Shown here: one piece after another, positions 12,274 to 38,241 of the stretch
How positions within the stretch are numbered: position 1 is the stretch's first letter
Layout: every line of letters begins with the position of its first letter
NCBI GenBank assembly: GCA_963817785.1
Contig: CAWFPL010000008.1
Span: 912,463-976,462 of the forward strand
Direction: 5' to 3'
Length of the DNA: 64,000 bases
From: an uncultured Pseudomonadota bacterium
GTDB lineage: Bacteria; Pseudomonadota; Gammaproteobacteria; Burkholderiales; SG8-39
Made by a program: the position numbers and the translations under genes
Notes under the pieces: generated by a model
Database searches by the model: none
Told to the model about the DNA's origin: nothing
What the model saw: the letters and a program-made list of their open reading frames with translations, nothing else

Positions 12274-12286
12274 TCGAGCCGGAGGC

Positions 12287-13588: not shown

Positions 13589-13647
13589 AGCGCCCCTTGA
13601 CGGCCGGACAGTTTTGTCCGATAGTGACCTGACGTGCCGAGCGAGCC

Positions 13648-13863: not shown

Positions 13864-13873
13864 GGAACAAGCG

Positions 13874-16967: not shown

Positions 16968-16975
16968 GGAAGAGC

Positions 16976-23657: not shown

Positions 23658-23658
23658 G

Positions 23659-24519
23659 CTACGCAGTTCGCCGGAAGCCTTGCGGCCGCATGACCATCAC
23701 AAGGATCAACAGTGCGTAAGGCAGTACATTTTCCGCATCACCACCCAGATAGTAACCCACTACCGATTGCCCGAGCCCGAGCAGCAGCGCGGCAATCGCC
23801 ACCCCCACATAGTCCCCAAGGCCGCCCAGCGCGATGATGACGAATGCCAGAATGGTGAGATTGTCGGCGGAGGCAGCCGCCATCGGGATGACCAGGATGA
23901 GCAAGGCGCCCGCCGCCGAGGCGAGTCCCACGCCGAGCGCGAACGCCACAAGCCGAACTCGCCCGACATCGATTCCGCAACAGGCGGCACCGGTCGAGCT
24001 CTGCGAGGCTGCCAATAGTGCTTTGCCGAACAGCGTCCGGTTGAGCCCGTAGTAGAGAATGAAGGCGATCGCCGCTGCGAACAGGCCGGAAGCCACCAAT
24101 GCCTTACTCAAGGTCACACCGCCGATCGTCCACGTGGACTGGAGATAGGGAAGCGATACGTAGTCCGATCCCCAGAGCTGCAGCGCCAGTTCGATCAACA
24201 CGTAATTGAGCCCGAAAGTGATCATCAGACTCAGGAGCTCGGCCTTGCGTCCGAAGCGGACCAAGGGCTCGAGCAGCATCGGCTGAAGAATGCCCCCGAC
24301 TACGAACATGACAACGAAGATGATCGGCAGAGCGACCAGCGGATTGACCCCCAGATGGGTCGTCGCCCAGAAGGTGAATAGTCCGGCCATGACGATGAAG
24401 CTACCGTGGGCGAGGTTCACCACCCCCATCACCCCGAATATCAAATTCAGGCTCTGCGCGATGAGAACGTAGGTGCCACCCAGCAAGATGCCGTTGATCA
24501 GGAGCTGCAGCGCAAGCAT
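23659..24519 (-). CDS. branched-chain-type ABC permease (LivH-like)
   Basis: 286 aa, polytopic. MLALQLLINGILLGGTYVLIAQSLNLIFGVMGVVNLAHG is the LivH N-terminal pattern. Confidence 0.85.
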   Translation of the reverse strand: MLALQLLINGILLGGTYVLIAQSLNLIFGVMGVVNLAHGSFIVMAGLFTFWATTHLGVNPLVALPIIFVVMFVVGGILQPMLLEPLVRFGRKAELLSLMITFGLNYVLIELALQLWGSDYVSLPYLQSTWTIGGVTLSKALVASGLFAAAIAFILYYGLNRTLFGKALLAASQSSTGAACCGIDVGRVRLVAFALGVGLASAAGALLILVIPMAAASADNLTILAFVIIALGGLGDYVGVAIAALLLGLGQSVVGYYLGGDAENVLPYALLILVMVMRPQGFRRTA

Positions 24520-24624
24520 GTCCGCCCAGTCACTTCCGCAAGCCCGTCGACGCTCGACGCGGCGGCGGGAACCCCGCCCGCCGCGCGAACGCGCCGAACA
24601 CCCGTACCCGCTATGCGCGCCTGA

Positions 24625-25776
24625 TTATTGGCCGGTATAAGGCGCGACAAGCTTCGCCTCCGCCAAACTCGAGGGCGTAAGCAGCTTGATCTCACCGTTC
24701 TGGATCTGCACCAGCTCCTGCTCGTAGCCGAGCGCCAGTCCGCTGGGATCGACCTTATAAGTTCCCTGGACCGTGTCCACCGTGTGGTGCAGGAGCCACG
24801 TGCGGAGCTTTTCCTGATCGAGTGAGTGGGTGGCTTTGACAGCAGCGCCGAGAACCTGTATCGCGGCATACCCGGAAGCCGCGTGGTAATCCGGGGAGCC
24901 ATGAAACATCGCCTTGTAATGAGCGACAAATTCGCTGTTGCCCCGGCTCTTGAAGTTGTGCCACCAACCCGTATTGGAAATGATCCCGTTGGCGAGCGGA
25001 CCGACCGCTTGCAGGAAGGAAGCCTCCACTGGCCCGATTGTCTCGGCGAAATACTTCGGCGCAAAACCTTGCGCGTGAAGCGCCTTCGCAATGCCCACCG
25101 CATCCGGGAAGTAGGTGCAGCCAATCACCACGTCCGGCTGGGCGTTTTTGATCGCGAGCGCCATCGAGTTGAAGTCGGGTTCCGGAAGCGAATAGGTTGC
25201 CTTGTACACGACCTTCATCCCGAGCTTTTCCGCCTGGGCGATTCGCGCGTCGTAGCACACAAGCGAGAACGCAGACTTGAGCCCCAGCACAGCCACGGTC
25301 TTAGCCCCAGCGCGCTTCACCATGGGCAACAACGTGCTGAGGTAGCGCTCGGAGGAGGCGATACCCTGGAAGTTCCACTTGTTTCCGGGAACATAGATAC
25401 CCGGCATCGACGCCTCAGGCTCCACGACGGCGTACTGGTACTTGTTGAACAAAGGAGCCACGGCATTGGTGACGCCGCTCGAATACGGACCGACGAGCAA
25501 TGACGCCTTGTCTTCGGTAAGGAGCCTCGTGTAGAGCCGCACCGCGGTTCCGGGGTTGCTCTGATCGTCGTAGATTTTGAGTTCGATCTTGCGGCCCAGC
25601 CAGCCGCCATGCGCATTCGCCTCAGCGACTGCGAGTTTCATGCCGTTCAGGTTGTAGTCGGCGTCCACAGCGAAGGCACCGGTCTGCGAGCTTGTCGCCC
25701 CAACCACAATCGGCCCACCCGCCGCGTACGCGGCACCGCCGCACATGACAAACAGCGCAGCAGCGCGGAAGAGCAT
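24625..25776 (-). CDS. ABC transporter periplasmic substrate-binding protein (LivK/type I PBP fold)
   Basis: ORF 24625..25821. I set the start at ATG 25776, 5 nt after AAGGAG. It has a signal peptide (MLFRAAALFVMCGGAAYA) and the pattern IVVGATSSQTGAFA. Confidence 0.8.
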   Translation of the reverse strand: MLFRAAALFVMCGGAAYAAGGPIVVGATSSQTGAFAVDADYNLNGMKLAVAEANAHGGWLGRKIELKIYDDQSNPGTAVRLYTRLLTEDKASLLVGPYSSGVTNAVAPLFNKYQYAVVEPEASMPGIYVPGNKWNFQGIASSERYLSTLLPMVKRAGAKTVAVLGLKSAFSLVCYDARIAQAEKLGMKVVYKATYSLPEPDFNSMALAIKNAQPDVVIGCTYFPDAVGIAKALHAQGFAPKYFAETIGPVEASFLQAVGPLANGIISNTGWWHNFKSRGNSEFVAHYKAMFHGSPDYHAASGYAAIQVLGAAVKATHSLDQEKLRTWLLHHTVDTVQGTYKVDPSGLALGYEQELVQIQNGEIKLLTPSSLAEAKLVAPYTGQ

Positions 25777-25984
25777 GCGCGCTCCTTCCCCTATCCGAAG
25801 TCTTGCTGAACCTGGGACCATAAATGCCTCCTTGGGTTAACCACCGAAAGTCACTTCGCACTTGTTGTTTAACGCCCCATTCGAACGTTCGCGTCCCGAT
25901 CGTGCGCGGCGCCGTGGCGCGACGGTACGGACGCCCCGAGGTGGCGCCCTCGTCTTGACAGGCCCCGCCCCCGCGAGCACTATG

Positions 25985-26310: not shown

Positions 26311-26829
26311 ATGCCCACGAGATCCAAGCAGATTGCCAATGCACGCTACCGTGCCGACATTGGGCGGTACCTGGAGGACTTTAAGGTCGGCGACGTGTAT
26401 GAGCATCGGCCCGGCAGGACGCTCACGGACGCGGACAACATCCAGTTCTCGCTCCTAACGATGAATAACCACCCACTCCATTGCGACGCGGTCTACGCCC
26501 GAAACAGCGAGTTCGGGCGCCCACTGGTGAACAGCGCCCTTACGCTGGCCGTGGTGCTGGGCATGTCGGTAGCGGACGTCAGTGCCAAGGCGATCGCCAA
26601 CCTCGGCTGGAGCGACATCAAGCTTTTAGCGCCGGTTTTCCCCGGCGACACCATTTACGCCGAGTCCGAGGTACTAGAGCTGCGAGAATCCAAGTCCCGT
26701 CCGACCCAAGGTGTAGTCACCGTGCGTACCACAGGCAAGAAAGCAGACGGCACGGTATTCATGACCTTCGTGCGCTCGGTATTGGTACCCAAGCGCGGCC
26801 ATGGCGTCGGAGACGTCGCTAGCTATTGA
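26311..26829 (+). CDS. MaoC-like (R)-specific enoyl-CoA hydratase/dehydratase
   Basis: 172 aa with FKVGDVYEHRPGRTLTDADNIQFSLLTMNNHPLHCD, the MaoC hotdog hydratase motif (as in itaconyl/mesaconyl-CoA hydratase-type proteins). Confidence 0.8.
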   Translation: MPTRSKQIANARYRADIGRYLEDFKVGDVYEHRPGRTLTDADNIQFSLLTMNNHPLHCDAVYARNSEFGRPLVNSALTLAVVLGMSVADVSAKAIANLGWSDIKLLAPVFPGDTIYAESEVLELRESKSRPTQGVVTVRTTGKKADGTVFMTFVRSVLVPKRGHGVGDVASY

Positions 26830-27027
26830 GAGGACCTGGGCACCGGCATAGTGTGCTGGGCCTCGAGTGGTGCATCGCAGCGAGGCCATCGAATACCAGC
26901 GCGGCGGCCTTTCGAGAGCGTACTCGAGGTGCACATCCGCTTTGCGGAGCGCTTGCCTTCTTTCGCACAGCTAGCCGTCACGACTCGGTCAGCTACGCAC
27001 CGTAACATGTGTTGAGAGGATTTCTCC

Positions 27028-28179
27028 ATGAGCAATGATAACGAGCAGGAACGTCTGATCCTCGACGCAGTTGACCGTTTTTTGGAGACGGAGGTTAGAC
27101 CCCACGTGCAAGAACTCGAGCACGAGGACATCTATCCCACCGAAATCGTGGAAAAGATGAAAGAGCTCGGACTATTCGGCTGCACGATCTCCCAGGGCTA
27201 CGGCGGCCTTGGGCTTTCCACGTCGACCTACGCAAAGCTCGTCGAGCGCATTTCCGCCGTGTGGATGTCACTTTCTGGAGTCATCAACTCCCATCTGATG
27301 ATGGCCTTTGCGGTCGAGCGCCATGGAACCGAGGCGCAGAAACGCCATTTCCTGCCGCAATTCGCCACTGGGGAATTGCGTGGTGGCGTCGGTCTCACGG
27401 AGCCAAACGCTGGCACCGACCTGCAGGCAATTCGAACAGTCGGAGTGCGCGAAGGCGACCAGTACGTGATCAATGGAACCAAGATGTGGATTACAAACGG
27501 GCTTCATGGCAACTGCTTCTCTCTACTCGTTAAGACCGACCCCCAGGCCGAACCGCGTCACATGGGCATGAGCCTCTTCATTGCCGAGAAGGCTCAAGGC
27601 TTCACCGTCAGCCGAAAGCTGAAAAAGCTGGGTTACAAGGGCATCGACACCTGCGAATTGGTATTTAACGATTACCGCGTCGCCAGCGACCGGCTGATCG
27701 GTGGCAAGGAAGGGCGCGGCCTACAGCAAGTCCTTTCAGGGCTAGAGCTCGGACGCATTAACGTTGCTGCACGCGGCGTGGGCGTGGCACGCGCCGCACT
27801 GCAGGACGCGGTGGTCTACTCGCAGCAGCGACGAACGTTCGGCAAGCCAATTTGCGAGCATCAAGCCATCCAGCTCAAGCTTGGAGATATGGCAACCCGC
27901 GTCGAGGCGGCCCGCCTGCTCGTGGAAGCCGCGGCACGCGCGTTCGATCGCGGAGAACGCTGCGACATGGAATCCGGTATGGCCAAGCTCTACGCGACGG
28001 AAGCCGCAATGGACAATTCGCTCGATTCCATGCGCATCCACGGCGGCTACGGGTACTCGACGGAATTCAACGTTGAGCGTTACTTTCGCGACAGTCCCTT
28101 GCTATTGATCGGCGAGGGCACCAACGAGATGCAGCGCATCATCATCGCCAAGCAGCTAATCAAGCGGAATCCGGCATGA
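27028..28179 (+). CDS. acyl-CoA dehydrogenase
   Basis: 383 aa with GLTEPNAGTDL, KMWITNG, the C-terminal YEGTNEMQ-like GEGTNEMQRIIIAKQL, and catalytic-Glu context. Confidence 0.9.
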   Translation: MSNDNEQERLILDAVDRFLETEVRPHVQELEHEDIYPTEIVEKMKELGLFGCTISQGYGGLGLSTSTYAKLVERISAVWMSLSGVINSHLMMAFAVERHGTEAQKRHFLPQFATGELRGGVGLTEPNAGTDLQAIRTVGVREGDQYVINGTKMWITNGLHGNCFSLLVKTDPQAEPRHMGMSLFIAEKAQGFTVSRKLKKLGYKGIDTCELVFNDYRVASDRLIGGKEGRGLQQVLSGLELGRINVAARGVGVARAALQDAVVYSQQRRTFGKPICEHQAIQLKLGDMATRVEAARLLVEAAARAFDRGERCDMESGMAKLYATEAAMDNSLDSMRIHGGYGYSTEFNVERYFRDSPLLLIGEGTNEMQRIIIAKQLIKRNPA

Positions 28180-29366
28180 GCCTGCCCCTTCACGGCTTGC
28201 GTATCATCGCCGTGGAGCAATACGGCGCCGGGCCATTCGGCACACAGCACATGGCCGATCTCGGTGCCGAAGTCATCAAGGTTGAGAATCCCGAAGAGGG
28301 CGGCGACGTTGGACGCGCGGTGGGACCTTACTTTTTCGCTCCCGGCGACAGCCATTTTCACGAATCCTTCAATCGAAACAAGAAGAGCATCACGATTAAC
28401 CTCAAGAAACCCGAAGGGCAAGCGGTGCTTCACGATCTGGTCCGGACCGCTGACGGTGTTTTCGACAACCTGCGCGGAGATCTACCGGCCAAATTGGGTC
28501 TGACCTACGCAGACCTCAAGGCCCACAATCCAGCAATTGTCTGTGCACATCTTTCCGCCTACGGTCGAAGTGGATCCCGCGCTTCTTGGCCGGGATACGA
28601 CTACCTGATGCAGGCTGAGGCAGGATACCTTTCTCTGACAGGCGAGCCTGGAGGGCCGCCCGCCCGTTGCGGAATTTCGATCATCGACATGATGACCGGC
28701 GTTACTGCCGCGTTTGCGTTGTTGGCCGGAATCGTGAGCGCACGCAGTACGGGCATCGGCCGTGACGTTGACGTAAGCCTGTTCGACGTCGCTCTGCACA
28801 ACCTCACCTATCTTGGTACGTGGTACCTGAATGAGGGGGTAGCGGCGCAACGCGAGCCTCGATCGAGTCACCCTTCCCTCACGCCGAGTCAACTCTACCG
28901 TACCCGAGATGGCTGGCTTTTCATCATGTGCAACAAGGAGAAATTCTGGCCCCTGCTGGCGCAGGCCTTAGGGAAACCAGAGTGGGCCGAGCATCCGGAC
29001 TTCTGCAACTTCAAAGCGCGTCTTGCCAATCGCGCCCGATTAACCGAACTCCTGGACGAAGTGCTGAGCACTGCCACCACCGCGGAATGGCTCGAGCGCC
29101 TCAGTGGTAAGGTTCCGGTAGCTCCCGCTTACGGAGTGGCTGAAGCCTTGGACAATCCGTTTGTCAAAGAGCAAGAACGCGTCATCGAGGCTGAGCATCC
29201 GGTCCGCGGCAAGATTCGGACTCTTGCCTGCCCGGTGCGCTGTTCCGGCGAACCCGATCGGATCGGGATCGCCCCGGCGCTGGGCGAGGACACCGAGGCC
29301 GTTCTGCAGGCCATCGGCTATGACTGCGAGCAAATCGCTCAACTTCGCGAGAAAAGGGTGGTATGA
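28176..29366 (+). CDS. family III CoA-transferase
   Basis: 396 aa with GLRIIAVEQYGAGPFGTQHMADLGAEVIKVENP...NRNKKSITINL. ATGA overlap with the ACAD gene. Confidence 0.85.
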   Translation: MSLPLHGLRIIAVEQYGAGPFGTQHMADLGAEVIKVENPEEGGDVGRAVGPYFFAPGDSHFHESFNRNKKSITINLKKPEGQAVLHDLVRTADGVFDNLRGDLPAKLGLTYADLKAHNPAIVCAHLSAYGRSGSRASWPGYDYLMQAEAGYLSLTGEPGGPPARCGISIIDMMTGVTAAFALLAGIVSARSTGIGRDVDVSLFDVALHNLTYLGTWYLNEGVAAQREPRSSHPSLTPSQLYRTRDGWLFIMCNKEKFWPLLAQALGKPEWAEHPDFCNFKARLANRARLTELLDEVLSTATTAEWLERLSGKVPVAPAYGVAEALDNPFVKEQERVIEAEHPVRGKIRTLACPVRCSGEPDRIGIAPALGEDTEAVLQAIGYDCEQIAQLREKRVV

Positions 29367-30115
29367 GCAAGGAATCACCCTCGCCGCTGGTCGCCAGCCA
29401 GCCGCAGTATGTGCTCGTGGCGCAGGCGCTAATGCGCGACATCGCGCGAGGGCACTATCCCGTGGGGAAGTTATTGCCGACCGAACTGGAGCTCTGCACC
29501 CAGTTCCAGGTCAGCCGCCACACGATACGGGAAGCCATACGCAAGCTACTTGAGAGAGGGATGATCGTTCGCCAGCGCGGGGTCGGCACCCGAGTCAAGG
29601 CGAGCCAAACGCACTCCAGCTACGTCCAATCGACAACCTCGATCTCCGACCTGACGCAGTACGTGAAGGATACGCGTCTCGTGACGACCAAAGGTCAGGA
29701 GGTCATTGCCGATGAGGCGCTGAGCGCAAAGCTCAAGTGCGCCGTGGGTCAGCGCTGGATCTGCGTAAATGGCTTCCGATACGTAGGCAGGGAGAAGTTG
29801 CCGATAGCGCTCACCGAGATTTACATCAATCCAATATACGGTGAGATTCAGAGGTTCATCGGCGTCACGAAGGTGCCGGTGTACACACTGATCGAAGAGC
29901 AATTCGGTGAGCGTGTTGTCGAAGTGAAGCAGGAGCTTCGCGCAGTCACGCTCTCCGCAGGAGACGCCAAACGTCTTAAGGCCAAAGTCGGCTCCGCTGG
30001 CCTGCTCATCGTACGACACTATATGGGAGCCAAGGACCAAGTGCTGGAGGTTGCGGTAAACCTCCATCCCGCCGACCGCTTTTCGTACCTTATGTCATTG
30101 CGTCTGCAGCTATAG
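29363..30115 (+). CDS. GntR-family regulator with UTRA effector domain (HutC subfamily)
   Basis: 250 aa with the wHTH LPTELELCTQFQVSRHTIREAIRKLLERGMIVRQRGVGTRV and a UTRA-sized C-terminus. ATGA overlap with the CoA-transferase. Confidence 0.85.
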   Translation: MSKESPSPLVASQPQYVLVAQALMRDIARGHYPVGKLLPTELELCTQFQVSRHTIREAIRKLLERGMIVRQRGVGTRVKASQTHSSYVQSTTSISDLTQYVKDTRLVTTKGQEVIADEALSAKLKCAVGQRWICVNGFRYVGREKLPIALTEIYINPIYGEIQRFIGVTKVPVYTLIEEQFGERVVEVKQELRAVTLSAGDAKRLKAKVGSAGLLIVRHYMGAKDQVLEVAVNLHPADRFSYLMSLRLQL

Positions 30116-30314
30116 GCGCCTGGCGTCACGGCTCGCCCCACTGAGCGACACGCCGACGCTCTAGCGGTCTCTAATGCATGGCGAGCGACCCTAGACAACC
30201 GCCAATCTTCTTTCGCATCTGAGCCTTAGAGTCAGTCCTCTCTGAGTTCAGTGCTCGCCCTAGCGGAATCAGTTTTGATTGAATTCATCATGACATAGTG
30301 ATTTACTGTCCGGC

Positions 30315-31088
30315 ATGGGCTCTAGCTCCGCGTCCCCAGGCATCCTTGGGCAATCGCGTTACGCGCTCGTCGCACGCTCCCTTTGCGACCACATCAACGC
30401 GGACCGCTATCCGATCGGCACGCTGCTGCCGACGGAAGTGGCTCTGTGCCAGCAATTCGGCGTATCGCGCACCACCCTGCGTGAGGCGATCCGGTGGTTG
30501 AGCGATCGCGGCATGGTCTCGGCGCGCCGCGGGATTGGCACGATGGTTCTCGCAAAGCAGCCCGCGACGCGATACGTCCACGCCGTCGATTCGATTGCCG
30601 ACGTCTTTCAGTACGCGAAGAACTTGCGCAACCCAATTGTCTTGAGCACGCACGAGTTCGACGTCGCCGTAGCCGATGAAGAGCTGCTGCGCGGCGCGGC
30701 TGGACAGCGCTGGATTCGTATGGAGCTGACCCGGACCTTCCTCGGGGACACAACGCCGCTGCTTTACGCACAGGTTTATGTACCGCACATGTTCGGGACC
30801 ATTGCACAACTGGCCCCGACCTGCAGTAACCCGATCTACACACTGCTCGAAAGCGAATACGGCGAGCAAATCCTTGCTGTGGAACTGGAGTTCGGAGCGG
30901 CCCCCATTGATACCAGACCGGCACAAATGCTTCACGTCGCACCCGGCTCACCAAGCCTTTGCGTCATCAGGCATTACTTTGGTTCCAGCAAACGCCTCTT
31001 GCTAGTAACGGTGAGCCATTATCACCCCGACCGCTACAGTTATCGGATGCGGTTGGATTTCAATCCGCAGCTTTCAAAAAGGCCGTGA
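30315..31088 (+). CDS. GntR-family regulator with UTRA domain (paralog of the preceding gene)
   Basis: 257 aa with LPTEVALCQQFGVSRTTLREAIRWLSDRGMVSARRGIGTMV. It is collinear with the 29363 protein. Confidence 0.8.
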   Translation: MGSSSASPGILGQSRYALVARSLCDHINADRYPIGTLLPTEVALCQQFGVSRTTLREAIRWLSDRGMVSARRGIGTMVLAKQPATRYVHAVDSIADVFQYAKNLRNPIVLSTHEFDVAVADEELLRGAAGQRWIRMELTRTFLGDTTPLLYAQVYVPHMFGTIAQLAPTCSNPIYTLLESEYGEQILAVELEFGAAPIDTRPAQMLHVAPGSPSLCVIRHYFGSSKRLLLVTVSHYHPDRYSYRMRLDFNPQLSKRP

Positions 31089-31172
31089 CAATGGCCTCCC
31101 ATTCAGCTCCGAGCGCTTCGCATCGCCTAGATTCGACGCCCAACCGATCAACGTGTTCCCAAGAGGAGTCAC

Positions 31173-32618
31173 ATGGACAACGCAGCCATCGCCCACAACG
31201 CAACGCCTGACCCATTAATCTCTGCATCGTTGTCTTCTTTTGCTTCCGAATTGCGCCTGGATGACGTGCCTGACCCAGTCTGTCAATGCGCCAAGCTTCA
31301 CATGCTCGACGCCATTGGCATTGCCCTCGCTTCGAGCACGGAGAAGTTCGCGCTGCAGATCGTTGGCGCTCTCAGCGGTTTGGCCGGACGTGGGGACTAC
31401 CCCGTGATCGGCTTTCCGCACAAGCTTCCGATTCGAGACGCAGTGCTCGCCAACGGAGCCTTGATACACGGCATCGATTTCGACGACACGCACTCGGCTG
31501 GTGTAATCCACGTTTCGGCTAGTGCATTGCCGATGGCGCTTGCCGCGGCCCAAAGTATCGCCGGCACCGGAAAGGATGTCCTCCTCGCCTACCTCATTTG
31601 CGTGGAAACGGCCAGCCGAATTGCTATCGCAGCCAAAGGCGGATTCCACGTGAAGGGATTTCATCCGACCGGCATGGTTGCAGCCTTTGGCGCCGTGCTT
31701 GGCGTTGGCAGACTGTGGGGATTGACCGAGCCAGAACTCGCCCATGCGCAGGGCCTAGTTCTCAGCAAGGCAAGTGGCTCGTTCGAATTTATCGAAGACG
31801 GTGCGTGGAACAAGCGGTTCCATCCTGGATGGGCTGTTGCAGCCGCGATCACAGCGTGCGCCTTGGCCAAAGCTGGCGTCATCGGTGCCCGCAAAACCTA
31901 CGAAGGGCGCTACGGGCTTTTCAAATCATATCTCGGCGACGCATGGCAAGCCGATCTCTCCGCCTGCACGGCAGGCTTGGGCTCAAAGTGGGAGATGCTC
32001 GCGGTAGCGCTCAAGCCGTACCCCGTCTGCCACTTCAACCATGCCTTCATTGACGCGGCGCTTGCGTTGCGCAAGGATTATTCGATCGCGCCTGACCAGA
32101 TCGAATCGATCCAAGCGCTTATCGGCAAAGACCAGATCGGCATTGTCTGCGAACCCGAGGCAAACAAGCGCCGCCCACAGAACGCCTACGATGCCCGATT
32201 CTCCTTGCCTTTCGCCATCGCCACGGCGCTCATACACGGTCGTCTTACGATGAACGAGATCGCGGATTCCGCCATCCATGATCATCGCGTGCTCGGGCTA
32301 TGCGACCACACCACGTATGCGATCGACGATACAAGCGCTTACCCTCGCCACTACTCGGGAACTCTAGTGATTCGCCTACGCGACGGCCGCACGTTCAGCC
32401 ACCGGGAAGAGATTAACCGCGGTTCGACGGAAAAACCGCTTAGCAAGGACGATGTACTGGATAAGTTCCGGCAAACCGCCTGCAAAGCGCTGCCAGCTGC
32501 CAAAGTGGAGAAGACGATTCGCGATGTGCTCGATCTGGAGTCACTCACCGGCGTAGATGCCTTCGTATCGGCGCTTGCCCCCGCAGTATCGTCTACCGCC
32601 CTGCGGGAGATGGCGTAA
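31173..32618 (+). CDS. MmgE/PrpD-family protein (2-methylcitrate dehydratase superfamily)
   Basis: 481 aa. The size and the patterns HMLDAIGIALASS, NGALIHGIDFDDTH and KPYPVCHFNHAFIDAAL fit MmgE/PrpD. A GAGGAG RBS precedes the start. Confidence 0.8.
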   Translation: MDNAAIAHNATPDPLISASLSSFASELRLDDVPDPVCQCAKLHMLDAIGIALASSTEKFALQIVGALSGLAGRGDYPVIGFPHKLPIRDAVLANGALIHGIDFDDTHSAGVIHVSASALPMALAAAQSIAGTGKDVLLAYLICVETASRIAIAAKGGFHVKGFHPTGMVAAFGAVLGVGRLWGLTEPELAHAQGLVLSKASGSFEFIEDGAWNKRFHPGWAVAAAITACALAKAGVIGARKTYEGRYGLFKSYLGDAWQADLSACTAGLGSKWEMLAVALKPYPVCHFNHAFIDAALALRKDYSIAPDQIESIQALIGKDQIGIVCEPEANKRRPQNAYDARFSLPFAIATALIHGRLTMNEIADSAIHDHRVLGLCDHTTYAIDDTSAYPRHYSGTLVIRLRDGRTFSHREEINRGSTEKPLSKDDVLDKFRQTACKALPAAKVEKTIRDVLDLESLTGVDAFVSALAPAVSSTALREMA

Positions 32619-32776
32619 CGCCAGACACCCTTGCCGCCGAGTTTGGCGGCATATTCACCAAGGTTGGTGCAGTGAATATTGCACGCTGTTCGGAGTCGAA
32701 CCTCTGACACGAATCGTGCCGCCAACCGCGACTCACATTATAGGGTCCTGTCCCACGAAATCGGAGGATGTGTGCT

Positions 32777-33208
32777 ATGGCGCCAAGAGCCACTCTAGTA
32801 CTCGGCGTGATCGGCGCCGATATCCATAATATCGGAATCACCATCTTGGCCTCGGCATTGAGCTCCGCCGGGTTCAAAGTAGTAAATCTGGGAATCTTGG
32901 TGTCGCAGACAGAATTCGTGAAGGCGGCCGTGGAGACGGCAGCCGACGCAATTCTTGTCTCATCGCTGTGTGGCCACGGCGAGCTCGACTGCAAAGGCCT
33001 GCGCGCCCAATGCACCGAGGCCGGGCTCGAGAACATCGTTCTCTACGTGGGCGGCAATTTGGTCGTCGGCAAGCAGGACTGGGAGCCGATCGCGCACAAG
33101 TTCGTGGCGATGGGTTACGACCGTGCCTATCCACCTGCCACGACCCCGCATCGCGTGGTCGAGGACCTGACGGCCGATCTCGTAGACAAAGGGAGGGCAA
33201 GAACATGA
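32777..33208 (+). CDS. glutamate-mutase-like B12-binding small subunit (GlmS/MutS type)
   Basis: [32 protein letters not shown] (the DxHxxG motif) and [11 protein letters not shown] match methylaspartate mutase sigma. The start could be ATG 32777 or 32768. Confidence 0.8.
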
Positions 33209-34665
33209 CCCGCGTGCAAAGTAACACCCTCCCGAGCATGACGCGGTGGGACGAGGATCGCTTCCAGGAAGTGCGGCGGAGCGTGCTGGCAGCATGGCCC
33301 ACCGGTAGTGAAGTCGATCTTGACGAAGCTGCCGCCTACCACCGCGAGATGGCGCCAGCTAAGAACACCGCTTGGAGACTTCGACAGGCGCGCGCCCAAG
33401 GCACGACGCTGGTGCAACCGCGCGCCGGCGTCGCCGACGTCGAGCAGCAAATTGCGCTTCTCCAACGGCTACGAGTCGCAGGCGCAGATCTCCTCCCTAC
33501 GACTGTGGACTCGTACACTCGAGAATGCCGCTACGAGGATGCCGCGCGCGGCCTCGCGCAAAGCCGGGAAGCGGGCCGCTCACTGCTCAACGGCTTTCCC
33601 GCCGTCAACTATGGTGTACGAACTTGCCGTCGCCTCGTCGAGGCGGTGGATGCACCCCTGTTCGCTCGCACCGCGGCGCCCGACTGCCGCCTTACTCACG
33701 AAATCATGTACGCGGGCGGCTATAGCTCGTGCACGGCAGGCCCGATTGTCTTCTCGTTGGGGTATGCCAAGGATTATCCTCTGGCGAATGCGATCGAAGC
33801 CTGGCAATACTCGTATCGCATGATGGGCGCCTACCATGAGCGGGGCGTCACCTTGAGCGTCGAGCACTACTTGCCGATCTCGACCTTGGTCCCGCATGCG
33901 ACGTCGATGGCCTGCGCGCTCCTGGATTCCCTGATCGCCGCCGCGCAAGGTGTGCGCGACATCTCCCTCGGATTCGGCCAGCAATGCCATCTTGTCCAGG
34001 ATGCCGCCGCGCTGCGCGCCTATCCGGCCCTCGGCCGTCATTATCTCCACACCTTCGGCTTCACTGACGTAGAACTGAGCACGGTGATGTCGCAGTGGAT
34101 GGGTGGGTTTCCCAGCGACGAAGGACAGGCGTTCGGTGTCATCTGCATGGCCGCGCTCGCCGGTTACCTGGGCGGCGTTACTTACATGATCTCGAAGTCG
34201 CCCCACGAAGCGGCAGGCATCCCAACACCAGAGGCGAACATGCACGGCGTGAGTGCCTCGAAGATGGTGCTCAGAATGCTCGCTGACCAAAAGCTCGCCC
34301 CCATCCCAGAGATTGCCGCCGAGCAAGCGATCCTGGAAGCCGAGACGCGAGCCATCGTAGACCGCGCGCTCGAGCTCGGCGAGGGAGACGCCGCTCTGGC
34401 GGCAATTCGGGCGATCGAAGCCGGCGTCATTGACGTGCCCTTCTCGCCGCATCGTTCGAACGCCAACCAAGCGCTGCCGGCGCGAGATTGGCGCGGCGCT
34501 GTTCGGCTCGCGCAAGTCGGGGGCGTGCCGATTCCGAAGGAAATCCGCGAGCATCACCAGGCCGAACTCGCACGCCGCACGGCAGGGCGGGCAGAACGGC
34601 AACCCTGGGAACTGTTACTAGCCGATGTGAACGCGATCAGCGAAGGCATGCTGCTCCCCGACTGA
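33205..34665 (+). CDS. glutamate-mutase-like large subunit (GlmE/MutE type), atypical active site
   Basis: ATG 33205 forms an ATGA overlap and gives 486 aa. The protein is collinear with clostridial GlmE as I recall it: [42 protein letters not shown]-like [11 protein letters not shown], and [11 protein letters not shown]. Confidence 0.8.
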
Positions 34666-34690
34666 CCTCGCCGCTGGGAGACTGAGGGAG

Positions 34691-35137
34691 GTGAGCCAAC
34701 AACCTTTACGCGGTGTGCGGTTCGTAGATCTCACGACGGTCCTGATGGGCCCTTTCGCGACGCAGATTCTTGGCGATTACGGCGCTGACGTCATCAAAGT
34801 TGAATCGCCCGCGGGAGATCCCGTACGCGGAATCGGTCCGGCCCGCCAACCGGTATGGGTTCGATCTTCCTGCAGGCCAACCGCAACAAGCGCAGCCTGG
34901 TGCTTGACCTGCGCACTTCCGAAGGCCTGGCGTTATTGCGGGAGCTCATCGCCACTGCAGACATCTTCGCCTACAACTTGCGACCGCAGGCGATGGAAAA
35001 GCTCGCTCTTACGTATAGCGGTCCATGTAAGCGCCGAGATCCTCGCCTCGCTCGGTCGCGCACCGCAGGACATCGCGGCGCTGGCCGAACGCGCCATCAC
35101 CCGGATCGACCCCGAAAGCGCTGCGCTGCCGACCTAG
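34691..35137 (+). pseudogene. family III CoA-transferase remnant (frameshift plus large internal deletion)
   Basis: Frame 2 reads [44 protein letters not shown]. Frame 1 (ORF 34855..) continues with [25 protein letters not shown]...[13 protein letters not shown]. Frame 2 then gives only the extreme C-terminus ([20 protein letters not shown]). About 250 central residues are missing. Confidence 0.8.
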
Positions 35138-36012
35138 GCTCGCCTACGTCCCTCGACGGGCTTGGTTGGCAGCTTGTCCGGCTTGCTCGGACCCCACACG
35201 CGGCTATAGTAGGTGTCGGCGAGCTGCAGCGCACCGACCGGGTTGTGCGCAAGCACACGGTCCTTCGTGACCAGCGTGGTAACCAGTCCCCGCGAGTAGC
35301 GGATGAACAGACTGTCGTGCCCCACGCACAGGCCGACGATTACGTTCAGCTCACAACCGGCACGGTTAAGTAGTTCGGCCTGCGATATGGGATTGCAGAT
35401 TGCCTCGAACGTTCCTGGACGGATCTTATCTTCGTCCTTGAGCCCGATTTCCTCCTTCGGCACACCGCCGTTCTTGCAGGCGACCGAGGCGACTTCCAGC
35501 CCGTGGCTCTCGAGAATGGCGCTAAACACGCGCGACAGATCGACGAAGCTAATGCAGGTGGCGATGCCGACGTGGCGAAACCCCATGCGCTTGGCAAAGT
35601 GACAGATCTCCTCGACCCGCGTCCACTTGCAATAACCTTCGCTTTCCACAGCCGCCGAAACTCGCGCGATGCGCTCGATGAAGGGATTGCGTCGATAATC
35701 CTGCGCATCAGCGATACCCTCGGGGTCGACCTTGGATGGGCAAAATCCGGGGCCTCGCTCATCGCTCTCCCCTTGGCGACATGCGCGAACCGTGTTCGGG
35801 CAATACGCGCAGGCCGGCGTTTCGTATGCAGCCACTACCGCATTCTTAATCCAGGGGTCATACAAAACGAGCCTACGCTCAGCCTCAAGCCGCTTCAACC
35901 GTTTTGAGCTGAGCGATTCAAGATTCTCCCTTGAAGGGGAAACGATGGATTCCAGGCGCAAATGCGACTCGTTCCGGCGACTCACGGGAACCGTGACGGC
36001 AGCACACGTCAA
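35134..36012 (-). CDS. Cys-rich metal-binding protein (DUF1847-like by recollection)
   Basis: Track ORF of 292 aa with [20 protein letters not shown] and [14 protein letters not shown]. The true start is uncertain, since several internal TTG/GTG codons are available. Confidence 0.5.
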
Positions 36013-36336: not shown

Positions 36337-36430
36337 TGGCGGAAGAGGTAGGAGTCGAACCTACCAGAGACGTCAGACGCCTCTCCCCGGATTTGAAGTC
36401 CGTGCGTCCCACCGGGGACGTTGCTCTTCC
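36337..36430 (-). tRNA. selC: tRNA-Sec (anticodon UCA)
   Basis: The reverse complement reads GGAAGAGCAACGTCCCCGGTGGGACGCACGGACTTCAAATCCGGGGAGAGGCGTCTGACGTCTCTGGTAGGTTCGACTCCTACCTCTTCCGCCA. It has the anticodon loop CUUCAAAUC, a long variable arm, the T-loop GGTTCGACTCC and a 3' GCCA. It is closely collinear with E. coli selC as I remember it. Confidence 0.9.
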
Positions 36431-38241
36431 TCGGAAAGCTTGCGTGCGAAGCGCAGGTCGCCCGCTCGCCGCGTGTAGCCGGCCTCGTCGAGGTACTCGA
36501 GCATCGCAATCGTCAGATTGCGGCCGAGGCCGCTGCGGTCGCGAAACTGCGCCGCCGTGAATCCGCGTTTTTTCGACTCGCGGTCCAGCGTCACCGCCAG
36601 ATCCACTAATCGGTCGACCATCTCCGGCAAGAAGAAGCGGTTCGGGGCCACGCGATGCACACGCCCCGCGCGCGCCACCCGATGCAGGAATTCGGCCACC
36701 ATCTTGGGCTCCATCGCGACACGCTCCGCCAACTCGTGTACTCGAGGGGGCCTGCCGCCCTCGCCCCCGAGGAGCAGCGCGCACCTTTGCCAAAGGACCT
36801 CATCCTGCGCCGAGAGTGCCGGGACGTGACTGGGCAGGCGCAGGCTCGGGCCTTCGCGCGCGAGTTGTCCGGCGCCGACCAGGGACTCGATTACCGCCGC
36901 GAGCGGAGCACCGACGTCTGCTGGCCGCGGGCCGATCGCATCAGGATACGCCGCGTGCCAGGCAGCGACGGAACTCACAAGCGCCTCGCAATGCGCCTCC
37001 CACCGTTCTCGCCGCATCATGTGGCGCACCCCGCGCACGGCGAAGGCGACGAGTCCCTCCGCACGAAGGGGAGGAACGTGGAACGTCCTTTCAAACCACT
37101 CAACGTTCACTATTCCCTTGGTCAACAGAGCGTCGAGGGCCTGTTCGGCGGATCGGCCCACGAACAGCCCAAGCGTGGCGACGCGCTCGGGCCGCGAAGC
37201 GCCTCGTTCGGGTGGCAGCGGATCGACCACCACACCCGCGCCGACGAGTCGCCAGGAGCCCGGATCGCGCAGCAGCAGACGGTCGCCGTGCCACGCCGAA
37301 ACCGCGCGCGGAAAAGCAAGCCGCGCAAAGCGCCCGAATGGCGAGAGCCTCGCCTGCAGCATCGCGGTACCCAAGTGCACGCCGAGCGTGACGGCCCGGA
37401 CGAGTGGCGCCTGGAGCCACGCCACCTCGATGTCGACGTGCCGCGACACGGGCGCAGGTGCCGAATCCGCAAGCACATCACCGCGCTGCAGCTGGCCGCG
37501 CGCGACGCCGTGCAGGGCTAGCGCGCAGCGCTGTCCAGCGGTTGTGCGAGCCGCTTCGCAACCGTTCGCGCGCAAACTGCGCACGCGCGCGCGGCGTGCC
37601 GCGGGCAGCACCTGCACCTCGTCCCCCAGCGTGACTGCGCCCGACAGGACGGTGCCCGTGGCGACGAGACCAATGCCGTCGATCACGAAGGCGCGATCCA
37701 CGTTCATCCGGAAACGTGGCGCCGTGGCGTGCGGCGGCACGCTGCCGGCGATGGCGGTGAGCCTATTACGCAGCCCATCGAGCCCGTGGCCGGTGACCGC
37801 GGACACCTGCAGAACCTCGGATCCCTCGAATCGGCCCCGGGCGAGTAGAGCACGCAATTCGACCTCTGCCTGCGCCGCGCGCTCGGGCGCCGTGCGGTCG
37901 ACCTTGCTTAGCACGGCGAGCAGCCGCGGCGCACCGAGATGCTCGAGGATGGCCACGTGCTCGCGCGTCTGCGGCATGGGTCCGTCGTCGGCAGCAACCA
38001 CCAGCAGCGCGAGGTCAATACCCTGCACGCCTGCAGTCATGTTGCGCACGAAGCGCTCGTGCCCCGGTACGTCGATGAACGCAATTGGCGCGCCGCCGGC
38101 GAGGGGCAGATAGGCGAAGCCGAGGTCGATGGACATGCCGCGGCGCTTTTCCTCCGGCAGCCGATCAGTGTCGACGCCGGTGAGCGCGCGCACGAGGGCG
38201 GTCTTGCCGTGGTCCACGTGGCCGGCCGTGGCGACGATCAC
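36373..38241 (-). CDS. selB: selenocysteine-specific translation elongation factor SelB
   Basis: 622 aa with [30 protein letters not shown] and the C-terminal winged-helix region. GTGA overlap with selA. The ORF 3' end runs 58 nt into selC. Confidence 0.9.

Follow-up and report, generated by a model that had tools for sequence, protein, structure and literature searches.

Glutamate (methylaspartate) mutase (EC 5.4.99.1) is known from Clostridium cochlearium, C. tetanomorphum, E. coli O157:H7 and haloarchaea, with structures under PDB 1CCW, 1I9C and 6H9E. In this enzyme Glu171 contacts the glycyl amine, and Arg100 and Tyr177 contact the acrylate carboxylate (PMC10947579). In the haloarchaeal methylaspartate cycle, mesaconate is activated by a CoA-transferase and hydrated by a MaoC-type hydratase, and a fumarase/citramalate-CoA-transferase/lyase route for mesaconate is known as well (PMC4682846). 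The itaconate/methylsuccinate cluster of saprophytes, represented by P. aeruginosa PA0878-PA0883 and by Cupriavidus necator, consists of a MaoC-type hydratase, an acyl-CoA dehydrogenase (ACAD), an MmgE/PrpD protein, a family III CoA-transferase and a citramalyl-CoA lyase, among them the enzymes named Ich, Mcd, Msi, Ict and Ccl (PMC12290011, PMC9875883). MmgE/PrpD enzymes act via C2 enolates on substituted succinates (PMC12290011). A B12 mutase is unreported for this cluster, and the words 'mutase' and 'B12' in the paper's supplements match unrelated proteome rows alone.

The window analysed here, meaning the whole stretch of 64 kb, contains genes reminiscent of both systems. A C5-dicarboxylate catabolic gene set, as proposed in the sequence-only reading, is supported, and the locus is best explained as two modules acting on branched and linear C5-dicarboxylic acids, module A (maoC-acad-coaT-gntR1) and module B (gntR2-prpD-like-glmS-glmE). 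The features are:

15451-21046, plus strand: second B12 module with IclR, crotonase-family protein, acyl-CoA mutase, family III CoA-transferase and MeaB chaperone (Pfam/NCBIfam)
16976-18601 (large) and about 18600-19020 (small), plus strand: split acyl-CoA mutase of the second B12 module (Pfam/NCBIfam)
21136-25821, minus strand: Liv-type ABC importer (Pfam: ATPase, permease-ATPase fusion, permease, Peripla_BP_6 binding protein)
26311-26829, plus strand: MaoC/MC_hydratase gene (Pfam MC_hydratase and MaoC)
27028-28179, plus strand: ACAD gene (all ACAD Pfam domains)
28176-29366, plus strand: family III CoA-transferase gene (Pfam CoA_transf_3, full length)
29363-30115, plus strand: GntR/UTRA (HutC-type) regulator 1, gntR1 (Pfam GntR and UTRA)
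30315-31088, plus strand: GntR/UTRA regulator 2, gntR2 (Pfam GntR and UTRA)
31173-32618, plus strand: MmgE/PrpD-family gene, prpD-like (Pfam MmgE_PrpD_N and _C)
32777-33208, plus strand: glmS, cobalamin-binding small subunit (Pfam B12-binding)
33205-34665, plus strand: glmE, catalytic subunit (PF06368/TIGR01503, Met_asp_mut_E)
34691-35137, plus strand: CoA-transferase pseudogene (residues 6-53 alone match CoA_transf_3)

Pfam and NCBIfam searches bore out the MaoC, ACAD, CoA-transferase, PrpD-family, GlmE and both GntR/UTRA genes. The ATGA overlaps at 28176 and 29363, read earlier as coupling the ACAD, CoA-transferase and GntR genes, are both real, and a third one at 33205 joins glmS and glmE. 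A single-operon layout is contradicted by gaps of 198 bp (maoC/acad), 199 bp (gntR1/gntR2), 84 bp (gntR2/prpD) and 158 bp (prpD/glmS). The genes of the earlier list exist, but the S subunit is the ORF at 32777-33208 upstream of glmE and not the last ORF. The latter was rejected as GlmS. It is what is left of a family III CoA-transferase gene: no more than about 54 residues at the N-terminus and about 35 at the C-terminus match an intact 404-aa CoA-transferase that follows glmE in a relative (locus L012), and the part between them is frameshifted and deleted. The GTG at 32968 was replaced by the ATG at 33205 as the start of GlmE. The canonical lyases had been described as missing from the window, and tblastn with reference proteins over the whole 64 kb agreed, detecting no methylaspartate ammonia-lyase, no class I fumarase/mesaconase and no HpcH/CitE-type lyase. 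MutL is also not encoded within the 64-kb window.

The glmS gene is preceded by a GGAGG ribosome-binding site, and its product carries an intact DIHNIG (DxHxxG) motif and is 60% identical to GlmS of Desulfitobacterium. GlmE scores 514 bits against PF06368/TIGR01503 (TIGR01503 cut-off 390) and is 48% identical to C. cochlearium GlmE (1CCW, E = 4e-132). Alignment to 1CCW and to 120 homologues showed that GlmE retains Arg66, Arg100 and Arg149 (the three-arginine claw), Tyr181 and the Lys/Glu of the KxPHEA motif, the claw and Tyr181 being invariant among the 120 homologues, and that it carries the substitutions Glu171 to Thr, Tyr177 to Phe, His150 to Thr, Gln147 to Phe and Asn178 to Ser. Glu171, Tyr177 and His150 are replaced in all members of its clade (40/40) and in none of the canonical enzymes (0/77). 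Likewise, RT[AS][AS]PD and a second, 14-letter signature occur in 40/40 clade members, at places where 77/77 canonical enzymes have RHGTPD and [FY]EGGGISYNIPYAK. There are 35 clade-specific positions, concentrated at residues 147-158, 171-180, 215-220 and 255-257. The clade is discrete, with 70-88% identity inside, then a gap to 54% (P0042, which has Thr171 and Phe177 in common with it) and then no more than 51%, and it was found in 9 of 185,579 species genomes, all of them betaproteobacterial MAGs. Annotation understates the diversity of the GlmE superfamily by far: the canonical signature is present in only 43 of the best 150 representatives of 50% clusters, some members have a fused E-S architecture, and proteins with Val, Asn or Pro at position 171 score above the TIGR01503 cut-off too.

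In the relatives' loci, the variant mutase recurs beside the PrpD-like gene, MutL (with most clade members), carboxylate transporters (always TRAP, TctC or MFS), CoA-transferases and ACADs, with differing gene orders:

L011: GntR2-PrpD-MutL-GlmS-GlmE-MaoC-ACAD-CoAT-GntR1
L019: GlmS-GlmE, convergent with Ccl-like lyase, MFS, GntR1, CoAT, ACAD
L014: TRAP, then GntR2-PrpD-MutL-GlmS-GlmE-MFS
L010: lactonase-PrpD-GlmS-GlmE-MutL
L012: GlmS-GlmE-CoAT-ACAD

The PrpD-like gene adjoins the variant GlmS-GlmE pair in L010, L011 and L014, and in L020 its product is fused to MeaB. GntR2 travels with the mutase module, its orthologues (56-69%) lying directly upstream of PrpD/MutL-GlmS-GlmE in L007/L016, L011, L014, L015 and L017. 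The association of modules A and B exceeds chance, as they are adjacent in other genomes with differing gene orders; the functional tie of the mutase to the gene set, assumed earlier, is upheld by this pairing in L011 and L019. Methylaspartase and mesaconase are absent from every variant locus examined.

These observations bear on whether the enzyme is an ordinary glutamate mutase, with the PrpD-like protein or an unlinked methylaspartase making mesaconate from 3-methylaspartate for module A. The TIGR01503 equivalog score, the 48% identity to the clostridial enzyme, the full set of retained cofactor contacts, the presence of MutL, the glutamate-mutase chaperone, in relatives, and the nearby Liv-type binding protein, from a family often binding amino acids, would agree with that. 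We consider it most improbable, because the three residues are replaced throughout the clade, the TIGR01503 cut-off does not discriminate at position 171, methylaspartase is adjacent in the canonical Desulfitobacterium locus (racemase-GlmS-MutL-GlmE-MAL-mesaconase) and absent from the window and the variant loci, the gene order is mutL-glmS-glmE instead of glmS-mutL-glmE, and the transporters of the other loci are of carboxylate types. That glutamate is not the physiological substrate is, in our judgement, fairly likely. The former suggestion of pieces of a methylaspartate-type pathway is not supported, since the mutase lacks both the amine-binding Glu171 and the acrylate-binding Tyr177 and no clade member adjoins methylaspartase.

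Alternatively, the mutase module might be a passenger, decaying or without connection to its neighbours, on a lower-GC segment acquired horizontally; lying beside module A would then have no function today. Between 14 and 36 kb the GC content is 0.59-0.64, against flanks of 0.66-0.71, and a tRNA-Sec marks the end of the segment; moreover, a dead CoA-transferase directly follows glmE, MutL is missing here, the 64 kb have no lyase, and several loci carry the mutase without module A. This appears quite unlikely, however, given that GlmS, GlmE and PrpD show no damage and, measured against their orthologues, strong purifying selection (dN/dS of 0.13-0.15, 0.08-0.12 and 0.10-0.13, respectively), identical copies occur in several metagenome assemblies, the modules are also adjacent in L011 and L019, and no integrase or att repeat was found. 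The variant clade is under purifying selection, and the mutase represents a rare conserved branch, probably an undescribed vitamin-B12 enzyme feeding a non-amino C5 diacid into itaconate/methylsuccinate-type breakdown.

Module A would be an itaconate/methylsuccinate-type CoA-dependent funnel, in which CoA transfer would activate the acid, the ACAD would oxidise the saturated ester to mesaconyl-CoA and the MaoC hydratase would convert this to citramalyl-CoA, which a citramalyl-CoA lyase encoded elsewhere in the genome would have to split into acetyl-CoA and pyruvate. The MaoC protein is predicted to be a mesaconyl-/itaconyl-CoA hydratase of the (R)-enoyl-CoA hydratase type, forming citramalyl-CoA; its best NCBIfam match is RipB_Ich (215 bits, below the cut-off of 340), its nearest solved structure is beta-methylmalyl-CoA dehydratase 8HGN, and it is 76% identical to its counterpart in an Azospirillum plasmid cassette (L025) and 80% to that in L011. 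The ACAD, a predicted methylsuccinyl-CoA-type dehydrogenase with a GEGT catalytic-Glu motif, is 73% identical to L025, 78-79% to L011/L019 and about 38% over 140 residues to PA0879, of whose damaged sequence the readable part alone was compared. The CoA-transferase (67% to L025, 73-74% to L011/L019) is a predicted dicarboxylate:succinyl-CoA transferase, with weak best NCBIfam matches to succinate-glutarate and succinyl-CoA:mesaconate transferases. GntR1 travels with this cassette, its orthologues (63-66%) coming after it in L011 and L019. The Azospirillum cassette, 67-76% identical over the three enzymes, adds a RipC/Ccl-type lyase; its lyase and hydratase best match RipC_Ccl and RipB_Ich, and its PrpD gene adjoins the ACAD, as Msi adjoins Mcd. 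Module A is of the itaconate/methylsuccinate type, but not orthologous to the characterised Pseudomonas/Cupriavidus enzymes. The ACAD and the PrpD-family protein, taken before as oddities, both have family counterparts in the published cluster (PMC12290011, PMC9875883; compare the Azospirillum cassette).

The PrpD-like protein belongs to an uncharacterised MmgE/PrpD subfamily and is predicted to process the free-acid mutase product as a dehydratase or isomerase. Its His-Asp-His carboxylate/base motif is conserved, and it has His at the position of IDS-epimerase Tyr145 and Val at that of Msi Tyr148. Relatives (52-68% identical) sit with family III CoA-transferases and HpcH/CitE lyases and without a hydratase, consistent with mesaconate being formed first and then passing into the known fumarase/citramalate-CoA-transferase/lyase route.

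The gene identities, the active-site substitutions with their conservation, the purifying selection and the recurrent neighbourhoods are observations; which acid the mutase takes, which way the flux runs and what the PrpD-like protein does are inferred, as follows. Module B would contain an adenosylcobalamin carbon-skeleton mutase of the glutamate-mutase fold, whose arginine claw would grip two carboxylates and whose amino-group-binding glutamate is gone. The kept claw and the lost amine contact suggest that a linear C5-dicarboxylate without an alpha-amino group is most likely converted to a 3-methyl-branched C4-dicarboxylate. The PrpD-like protein, in the place of methylaspartase, would remove water from 3-methylmalate to give mesaconate, the same dehydration chemistry as that of PrpD on 2-methylcitrate, and mesaconate would then enter module A. 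We give about even weight to this reading as a whole, that is, an AdoCbl mutase for a C5-dicarboxylate without an amino group, with 2-hydroxyglutarate to 3-methylmalate as leading candidate and a PrpD-like dehydratase; the 2-hydroxyglutarate/3-methylmalate pair specifically is proposed tentatively. The glutamate mutase of clostridia turns over L-2-hydroxyglutarate slowly, yielding threo-3-methylmalate, and the stabilisation of a glycolyl radical is close to that of a glycyl radical. In addition, three independent loci have a gene for a hydroxy-acid enzyme beside the mutase: in L010 an SMP-30/gluconolactonase-type lactonase, in L009 an FMN-dependent alpha-hydroxy-acid dehydrogenase and in L013 an isopropylmalate/tartrate-dehydrogenase-family enzyme. 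Against this pair, these are single instances and may be unrelated genes; Glu171 might also hydrogen-bond a hydroxyl, so that its loss does not single out a hydroxy acid; and the His at the epimerase Tyr position gives the PrpD-like protein a two-base-like arrangement that could make it an isomerase and not a dehydratase. Moreover, the pathway in the window is incomplete (no lyase, no MutL, a dead CoA-transferase), and GlmE lies above the 'methylaspartate mutase' equivalog cut-off, but so do clearly non-canonical members.

A route through 3-methylmalate gives the ACAD nothing to do. Yet five loci have an ACAD after the variant mutase, and three types are represented: Mcd-like ones (window, L011, L019), a different one (L012) and PimC/PimD-like dicarboxylyl-CoA dehydrogenases (L018). 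This favours a saturated product. A close rival of the leading candidate is an interconversion of glutarate and (S)-methylsuccinate. Here the PrpD-like protein, as a functional analogue of methylsuccinate isomerase, would provide the (R)-form, the one that the CoA-transferase prefers; mesaconyl-C4-CoA would come from the ACAD and citramalyl-CoA from MaoC. Every gene would then have a role, and the gene content equals the published methylsuccinate route of Ict, Msi, Mcd and Ich (PMC12290011). The arrangement of PrpD and ACAD in the Azospirillum cassette, a mutase-neighbouring CoA-transferase of L009 whose best match is succinate-glutarate CoA-transferase (472 bits), and pocket replacements towards less polar Thr, Phe, Val and Ala point the same way; by CIP priorities, we infer, exchanging NH2 for H in (2S,3S)-3-methylaspartate gives (S)-methylsuccinate, the isomer needing an isomerase. 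The fragmentation-recombination by which this fold works would nevertheless need a carboxymethyl radical, which has no captodative stabilisation, and we know of no enzyme of this kind. The PrpD-like protein shares only 26-28% of its residues with the methylsuccinate isomerase characterised from C. necator and has Val at Msi Tyr148, the ACAD resembles PA0879 distantly, and the lactonase and hydroxy-acid dehydrogenases beside the mutase would be unexplained. We hold this conversion to be unlikely; if true, the pathway would be a natural source or sink for methylsuccinate.

The same less polar pocket, with new His215, His257 and Gln255, the kept claw without the amine contact, and the diversity of the superfamily would also suit a different C5/C6 diacid that bears something other than an amine at C2. 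Candidates are 2-methyleneglutarate, which gives 3-methylitaconate in nicotinate fermentation, 2-oxoglutarate with 3-methyloxaloacetate as product, and 2-methylglutarate with 2,3-dimethylsuccinate; the PrpD-like protein would then act on the product by isomerising a double bond, by decarboxylation or by epimerisation. The C2-enolate chemistry of MmgE/PrpD enzymes on substituted succinates would allow this (PMC12290011). However, neither the window nor any of the examined loci has nicotinate-pathway genes, 2-methyleneglutarate and 2-methylglutarate are not known to be common substrates in the environment, and 3-methyloxaloacetate would leave the CoA module without use. Such substrates seem very unlikely, even though sp2 migrating groups rearrange readily, as in methylmalonyl-CoA and 2-methyleneglutarate mutases.

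The Liv-type importer reported near the module is present, whereas its sole assignment to this module is unsupported. It is a probable uptake system for the acid(s) handled by the flanking modules, and is at least as likely part of the second B12 (acyl-CoA mutase) operon directly upstream. Its binding protein is 77% identical to one beside the MeaB::PrpD fusion in L020, and related mutase operons have a TRAP transporter at its place. This second operon, which the sequence-only reading did not mention, recurs in L020, Paraburkholderia and Xanthobacter; its acyl-CoA mutase is closest to HcmA (4R3U), with the MCM-type Tyr and Arg (substrate-carboxylate binding) present and the HcmA Asp absent.

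Compared with known systems, the variant shares with GlmS/GlmE glutamate mutase the TIM-barrel E subunit and the Rossmann-fold B12-binding S subunit with DxHxxG, identities of 48% (GlmE) and 60% (GlmS), the claw, Tyr181 and the cofactor-binding Lys/Glu, and, in its relatives, the MutL chaperone. It differs in Thr171, Phe177, Thr150 and about 30 more clade-specific pocket positions, in the order mutL-glmS-glmE, never linked to methylaspartate ammonia-lyase/mesaconase, and in its linkage to an MmgE/PrpD protein, carboxylate transporters, CoA-transferases and ACADs. With the itaconate/methylsuccinate cluster, the locus has in common the hot-dog hydratase, ACAD, MmgE/PrpD protein and family III CoA-transferase, the predicted end in citramalyl-CoA and, in the Azospirillum relative of its cassette, the lyase; in contrast, its genes are not orthologous (PrpD-like 26-28% to Msi, ACAD about 38% to the readable part of PA0879), the window has no lyase, and the PrpD gene lies beside a B12 mutase, not the ACAD. 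By its proposed reaction, the mutase may be likened to the AdoCbl-dependent 2-methyleneglutarate mutase of Eubacterium barkeri in nicotinate fermentation, which turns a non-amino dicarboxylate with a C5 backbone into a methyl-branched succinate derivative; that enzyme is a single fused polypeptide, whereas the window enzyme is split and nicotinate-pathway genes are absent. Finally, the proposed sequence of a B12 mutase, elimination to mesaconate, hydration to a (citra/methyl)malyl compound and a lyase follows the logic of the methylaspartate pathway/cycle, from which the locus departs in having no methylaspartase, a lost amine-binding residue, an MmgE/PrpD protein as the proposed eliminating enzyme, and an ACAD.

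The region from 26311 to 35137 is made up of a left-hand module (module A, maoC-acad-coaT-gntR1) and a right-hand module (module B, gntR2-prpD-like-glmS-glmE), with the following features.

26311-26829 (+), MaoC/MC_hydratase protein
27028-28179 (+), acyl-CoA dehydrogenase (ACAD)
28176-29366 (+), family III CoA-transferase
29363-30115 (+), GntR/UTRA regulator 1
30315-31088 (+), GntR/UTRA regulator 2
31173-32618 (+), MmgE/PrpD protein
32777-33208 (+), B12-binding small subunit (GlmS) with DIHNIG motif, Pfam B12-binding
33205-34665 (+), Met_asp_mut_E protein (GlmE), PF06368 / TIGR01503
34691-35137, CoA-transferase pseudogene; only the first ~50 residues match CoA-transferase

Both ATGA overlaps described in the sequence-only reading (28176 and 29363) were confirmed, and a further one at 33205 couples glmS to glmE. 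The right-hand ORF of that reading (34691-35137) is not GlmS: it gave only a partial CoA-transferase match, its two ends correspond to those of the intact CoA-transferase of 404 residues located 3' of glmE in a relative locus (L012), its middle part is frameshifted and deleted, and it is a pseudogene. The earlier remark that the classical lyases are missing held, as tblastn with methylaspartase, a mesaconase subunit and six HpcH/CitE-type lyases drawn from other loci found none in the 64 kb. MutL is also absent from the 64-kb window. The window has neither lyase nor MutL and carries a dead CoA-transferase; the remainder of the 1.7-Mb contig may supply genes that the pathway needs, or the pathway may be partly degenerate in this genome.

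GlmE aligns over its full length to the Clostridium cochlearium enzyme (E = 4e-132), without gaps around the pocket of 1CCW, and scores 514 bits against the TIGR01503 cut-off of 390, a criterion (TIGR01503/PF06368) that is non-discriminating here, since it is passed as well by representatives whose residue 171 (C. cochlearium numbering) is Val, Asn or Pro. GlmS is 60% identical to Desulfitobacterium GlmS and keeps DxHxxG. Among 120 homologues, GlmE belongs to a discrete clade of about 40–41 clusters at 70–88% identity, below which there is a gap to one 54% relative (P0042) and then the canonical enzymes at ≤51%. The arginine claw Arg66/Arg100/Arg149 is conserved in the window GlmE and the whole clade, and the window protein retains Tyr181 and the KxPHEA cofactor contacts; its substitutions are Glu171 to Thr, Tyr177 to Phe, His150 to Thr and Asn170 to Cys. 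In the known enzyme the glycyl half is held by Arg66, Arg149 and Glu171, the last of which contacts the amine, and the acrylate half, with its carboxylate, by Arg100 and Tyr177 (PMC10947579). Position 171 is Thr in the window GlmE, in 40/40 clade members and in P0042, and Glu in 77/77 canonical homologues. The changes of Tyr177 to Phe and of His150, beside Arg149, to Thr are clade-wide, and P0042 has Phe177 as well. Every clade member carries the signature RT[AS][AS]PD, and all 77 canonical sequences carry RHGTPD ... [FY]EGGGISYNIPYAK. Furthermore, 35 of 486 positions are fixed differences between clade and canonical enzymes, more than half of them in the stretches 147–158, 171–180, 215–220 and 255–257, beside known pocket residues. 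The dN/dS values of GlmE, GlmS and PrpD against four to five orthologues are 0.08–0.15, that is, strong purifying selection. The pattern is one of a functional enzyme whose substrate has changed rather than of a gene in decay. The pocket residues set the enzyme apart from standard glutamate mutases, and a true glutamate mutase is unlikely. What follows directly from these data is that it would bind a dicarboxylate of glutamate-like geometry without an anchor for the alpha-amine.

A search of 185,579 species, each represented by one genome, for two signature peptides of the clade found nine loci, a lower bound for the clade, all in betaproteobacterial/Burkholderiales MAGs. The neighbourhoods of the variant mutase in relative loci are as follows (CoAT, CoA-transferase).

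L011: TctC, GntR2-PrpD-MutL-GlmS-GlmE-MaoC-ACAD-CoAT-GntR1 (both window modules, in opposite order, plus MutL)
L019: (MutL)-GlmS-GlmE, convergent with Ccl-like lyase, MFS, GntR1, CoAT, ACAD and truncated PrpD
L014: TRAP, divergent from GntR2-PrpD-MutL-GlmS-GlmE-MFS
L015, L016 and L017: TRAP, divergent from GntR-MutL-GlmS-GlmE
L012: GlmS-GlmE-CoAT-ACAD
L018: TctC-GlmS-GlmE-PimC/PimD-like ACADs
L013: GlmS-GlmE-unknown-TctC-isopropylmalate/tartrate-dehydrogenase family
L009: FMN-dependent alpha-hydroxy-acid dehydrogenase-GlmS-GlmE, then succinate-glutarate-type CoA-transferase and crotonase
L010 (the 54% GlmE): lactonase-PrpD-GlmS-GlmE-MutL

The recurrent partners of the mutase are thus a GntR/UTRA regulator, MutL, a carboxylate transporter, the PrpD-like protein and CoA-transferase/ACAD genes. 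The product of the mutase, it follows directly, would be handled by the MmgE/PrpD enzyme, activated with CoA, or both. The Desulfitobacterium methylaspartase (MAL) gave no tblastn match at E ≤ 1e-3 in the window or the 28 fetched loci. A shared GntR operator sought in five intergenic regions yielded only 9–11-mers, at about chance frequency.

The PrpD-like protein keeps the family motif His-x2-Asp-x10-His (equivalents of His88/Asp91/His102), and it represents a subfamily separate from methylsuccinate isomerase (Msi), cis-aconitate decarboxylase, IDS epimerase and 2-methylcitrate dehydratase. In Msi (PA0881 / Q0K3E6) the catalytic residues are His102 and Tyr148 (PMC12290011); the position of Tyr148 is Val in the PrpD-like protein, with a His one residue earlier, which is conserved in the aligned subfamily members and lies at the position of the second base of IDS epimerase, Tyr145. 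The absent Msi tyrosine was rejected as proof against an isomerase, as this His fills the IDS-epimerase tyrosine position. Since His replaces the IDS-epimerase base and the Msi Tyr is Val, the residues are compatible with isomerase and lyase alike. In L020, a 71% relative forms a fusion with the B12-chaperone MeaB within an acyl-CoA mutase operon, and relatives of 52–68% identity neighbour TauD-type dioxygenases, family III CoA-transferases and HpcH/CitE lyases, with no hydratase there. Three loci combine such relatives with TauD-type 2-oxoglutarate dioxygenases, HpcH/CitE lyases and CoA-transferases (L021, 8297-14632; L022, 10001-13546; L023, 8876-12451), and in these clusters oxygen-dependent reactions may replace the B12 or ACAD steps for acids of the same class.

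The ACAD and the PrpD protein are no anomalies in this setting, since a hot-dog hydratase, an ACAD, an MmgE/PrpD protein and a family III CoA-transferase make up the published itaconate/methylsuccinate cluster of saprophytes (PMC12290011, PMC9875883); all four families are co-located at 26311-32618, with the two GntR genes intervening. A tblastn search of plasmids found a cassette in Azospirillum brasilense (L025), in which a CoA ester lyase is divergent from MaoC-PrpD-ACAD-CoA-transferase-GntR; the window MaoC, PrpD, ACAD and CoA-transferase are 76, 51, 73 and 67% identical to its proteins, respectively, and the best models for its lyase and hydratase are RipC_Ccl and RipB_Ich, both under cut-off. 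A Cupriavidus plasmid match (L024) was set aside, as there is no cassette around the hit. The reference enzymes were synthetic gene sequences printed in the supplement of PMC12290011, whose damaged text makes all identities to them approximate: 26–28% between the window PrpD-like protein and C. necator Msi, and ~38% between the window ACAD and PA0879 over only 140 alignable residues. With these values, orthology of the two proteins to Msi and Mcd, as gene content had implied, was dropped. Moreover, the methylsuccinate isomerase gene always adjoins the dehydrogenase gene (PMC12290011), as prpD does in the Azospirillum cassette, whereas in the window 3 kb separates prpD from acad, and prpD has glmS as its neighbour. 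Ccl, the (S)-citramalyl-CoA lyase, is part of the Pseudomonas/Cupriavidus cluster and the lyase is present in L025 and L019, but the window has no HpcH/CitE-type match. On these comparisons the window cassette does not appear to be orthologous to the characterised Pseudomonas/Cupriavidus enzymes, and analogy and context are therefore the grounds for naming module A an itaconate/methylsuccinate-type module, rather than membership of that cluster.

Directly upstream lies a second B12 system.

15451-21046 (+), IclR, crotonase-family protein, split acyl-CoA mutase, family III CoA-transferase and MeaB

Its mutase is closest to 2-hydroxyisobutyryl-CoA mutase (HcmA), but the HcmA Asp is absent and the methylmalonyl-CoA-mutase-type Tyr and Arg, which bind the substrate carboxylate, are present. 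Paraburkholderia and Xanthobacter share the operon, followed by a TRAP transporter, with a large subunit 74–75% identical in full-length alignment; in L020 the MeaB::PrpD fusion comes next, together with a binding protein that shares 77% identity with that of the window. The operon (window, L020 and L026–L028) is widespread and apparently uncharacterised, and its composition recalls the sbm operon of E. coli. The Liv-type importer converges on this operon and points away from maoC; as the 77% binding protein or TRAP transporters follow the second-mutase operon elsewhere, it may serve the second operon, the module A side or both. Among solved structures, the Liv-type binding protein and the DctP proteins of the relatives' TRAP systems had only distant matches (E 1e-16 to 1e-20), from which no ligand could be transferred. 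Two different B12 mutases thus flank one importer and, when genomes are compared, have a PrpD-like partner in common, which suggests that they draw on one pool of C5 diacids.

We give about an even chance to the reading that the variant GlmS/GlmE is an undescribed adenosylcobalamin-dependent carbon-skeleton mutase acting on a nitrogen-free C5-dicarboxylate and forming, with its MmgE/PrpD partner, a B12-dependent entry by which linear C5 diacids would reach the mesaconyl/citramalyl-CoA route. The candidate reactions are 2-hydroxyglutarate to 3-methylmalate and glutarate to methylsuccinate. The former is ranked first, since a glycolyl radical gains stabilisation of the kind that the glycyl radical has in the normal fragmentation-recombination mechanism, and clostridial glutamate mutase reportedly converts 2-hydroxyglutarate slowly to 3-methylmalate. 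The PrpD-like protein would then dehydrate 3-methylmalate to mesaconate, an archetypal PrpD reaction because 3-methylmalate is 2-methylcitrate minus the carboxymethyl arm, its gene would stand in for the methylaspartase of classical operons, and mesaconate would pass on to the citramalyl-CoA route. This ranking also draws on the place of the PrpD-like gene, on the known route for mesaconate through CoA-transferase, MaoC hydratase or class I fumarase and citramalyl-CoA lyase (PMC4682846), and on the lactonase, alpha-hydroxy-acid dehydrogenase and substituted-malate dehydrogenase that flank the mutase in one locus apiece. Conversion of glutarate to (S)-methylsuccinate is a close rival: it would give a role to every gene, the ACAD included, account for the recurrent ACADs of three types, and lend an isomerase a stereochemical purpose, since the CoA-transferase prefers the (R)-acid (PMC12290011), but it requires a poorly stabilised carboxymethyl radical.

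The segment of ~14000-36400 has a GC content of 0.59–0.64 against 0.66–0.71 on both flanks and ends at tRNA-Sec; no integrase and no att-type or direct repeat bounding it was found, and it may be a horizontally acquired catabolic island. At its right end and beyond are the following features.

35134-35961 (-), DUF1847 protein
36338-36431 (-), tRNA-Sec
36373-38241 (-), SelB
38238-39629 (-), SelA
41827-42360 (+), UGSC-family gene
42363-43592, family III CoA-transferase
44244-45050 (-), DDE_3 transposase
45799-46575 (+), PEP-CTERM protein
48468-50009 (+), Mu-type transposase (rve + Mu-transpos_C_2)

The DUF1847 gene (Pfam E = 1e-59, no NCBIfam match) lies between the dead CoA-transferase and tRNA-Sec, and its stop and the end of the pseudogene ORF overlap. 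The UGSC-family gene, a few kb from the selenium genes, has an in-frame TGA in AIGD-U-GSCTSC, where gene callers give two ORFs, and is likely a selenoprotein gene; it is located between a gene for an unknown 373-aa protein without family match and the CoA-transferase gene, with a LysR regulator upstream. The transposases and the PEP-CTERM protein are to the right of the selenium locus. In the high-GC part at 1-14000, six long ORFs (e.g. 9575-12427 on the - strand and 6453-8261 on the + strand) have no Pfam match and are either wrong frames in GC-rich DNA or unfamiliar genes.

In the GlmE family at large, the canonical Arg-Arg-Arg-His-Glu-Tyr-Tyr signature was found in 43 of the best 150 50%-identity-cluster representatives, and most such clusters in P0244–P0393 are GlmE-like proteins that lack Glu171, portions of the canonical pocket, or both; several representatives, of ~630–640 aa, are E-S fusions. 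Many of the non-canonical proteins exceed the TIGR01503 equivalog cut-off ('methylaspartate mutase subunit E') and are probably misannotated as methylaspartate mutase, and the family looks under-explored. A simple rule, canonical RHGTPD plus EGGGISYNIPY versus clade RTA[AS]PD, would flag untrustworthy 'methylaspartate mutase' annotations, and the proposed function, if true, would offer a first handle on the large set that lacks the glutamate-binding signature. No publication naming such an enzyme was found within the literature searched. To our knowledge, the adenosylcobalamin isomerase reactions described so far number no more than about a dozen, and extending the glutamate-mutase fold to a new class of substrate would be a genuine gain for B12 enzymology. 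Such a function would further matter for the sources and sinks of branched C5 acids, as the origin and fate of environmental methylsuccinate and related acids is an open point in PMC12290011, and enzymes that branch or unbranch C5-diacids are relevant to itaconate and methylsuccinate bioproduction and to polymer upcycling (PMC9875883).

Compared with known systems, the canonical Desulfitobacterium locus has the order racemase-GlmS-MutL-GlmE-MAL-...-mesaconase, with MAL adjacent to the mutase, whereas none is near the variant. Other C2 substituents on the substrate (methylene, oxo or methyl) are possible; for the first of these, the 2-methyleneglutarate mutase of E. barkeri is a fused polypeptide, whereas the subunits are split here, and this architecture alone argues against simple membership. 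The fold and the cofactor chemistry of the variant mutase are familiar, and its substrate and pathway role appear new.
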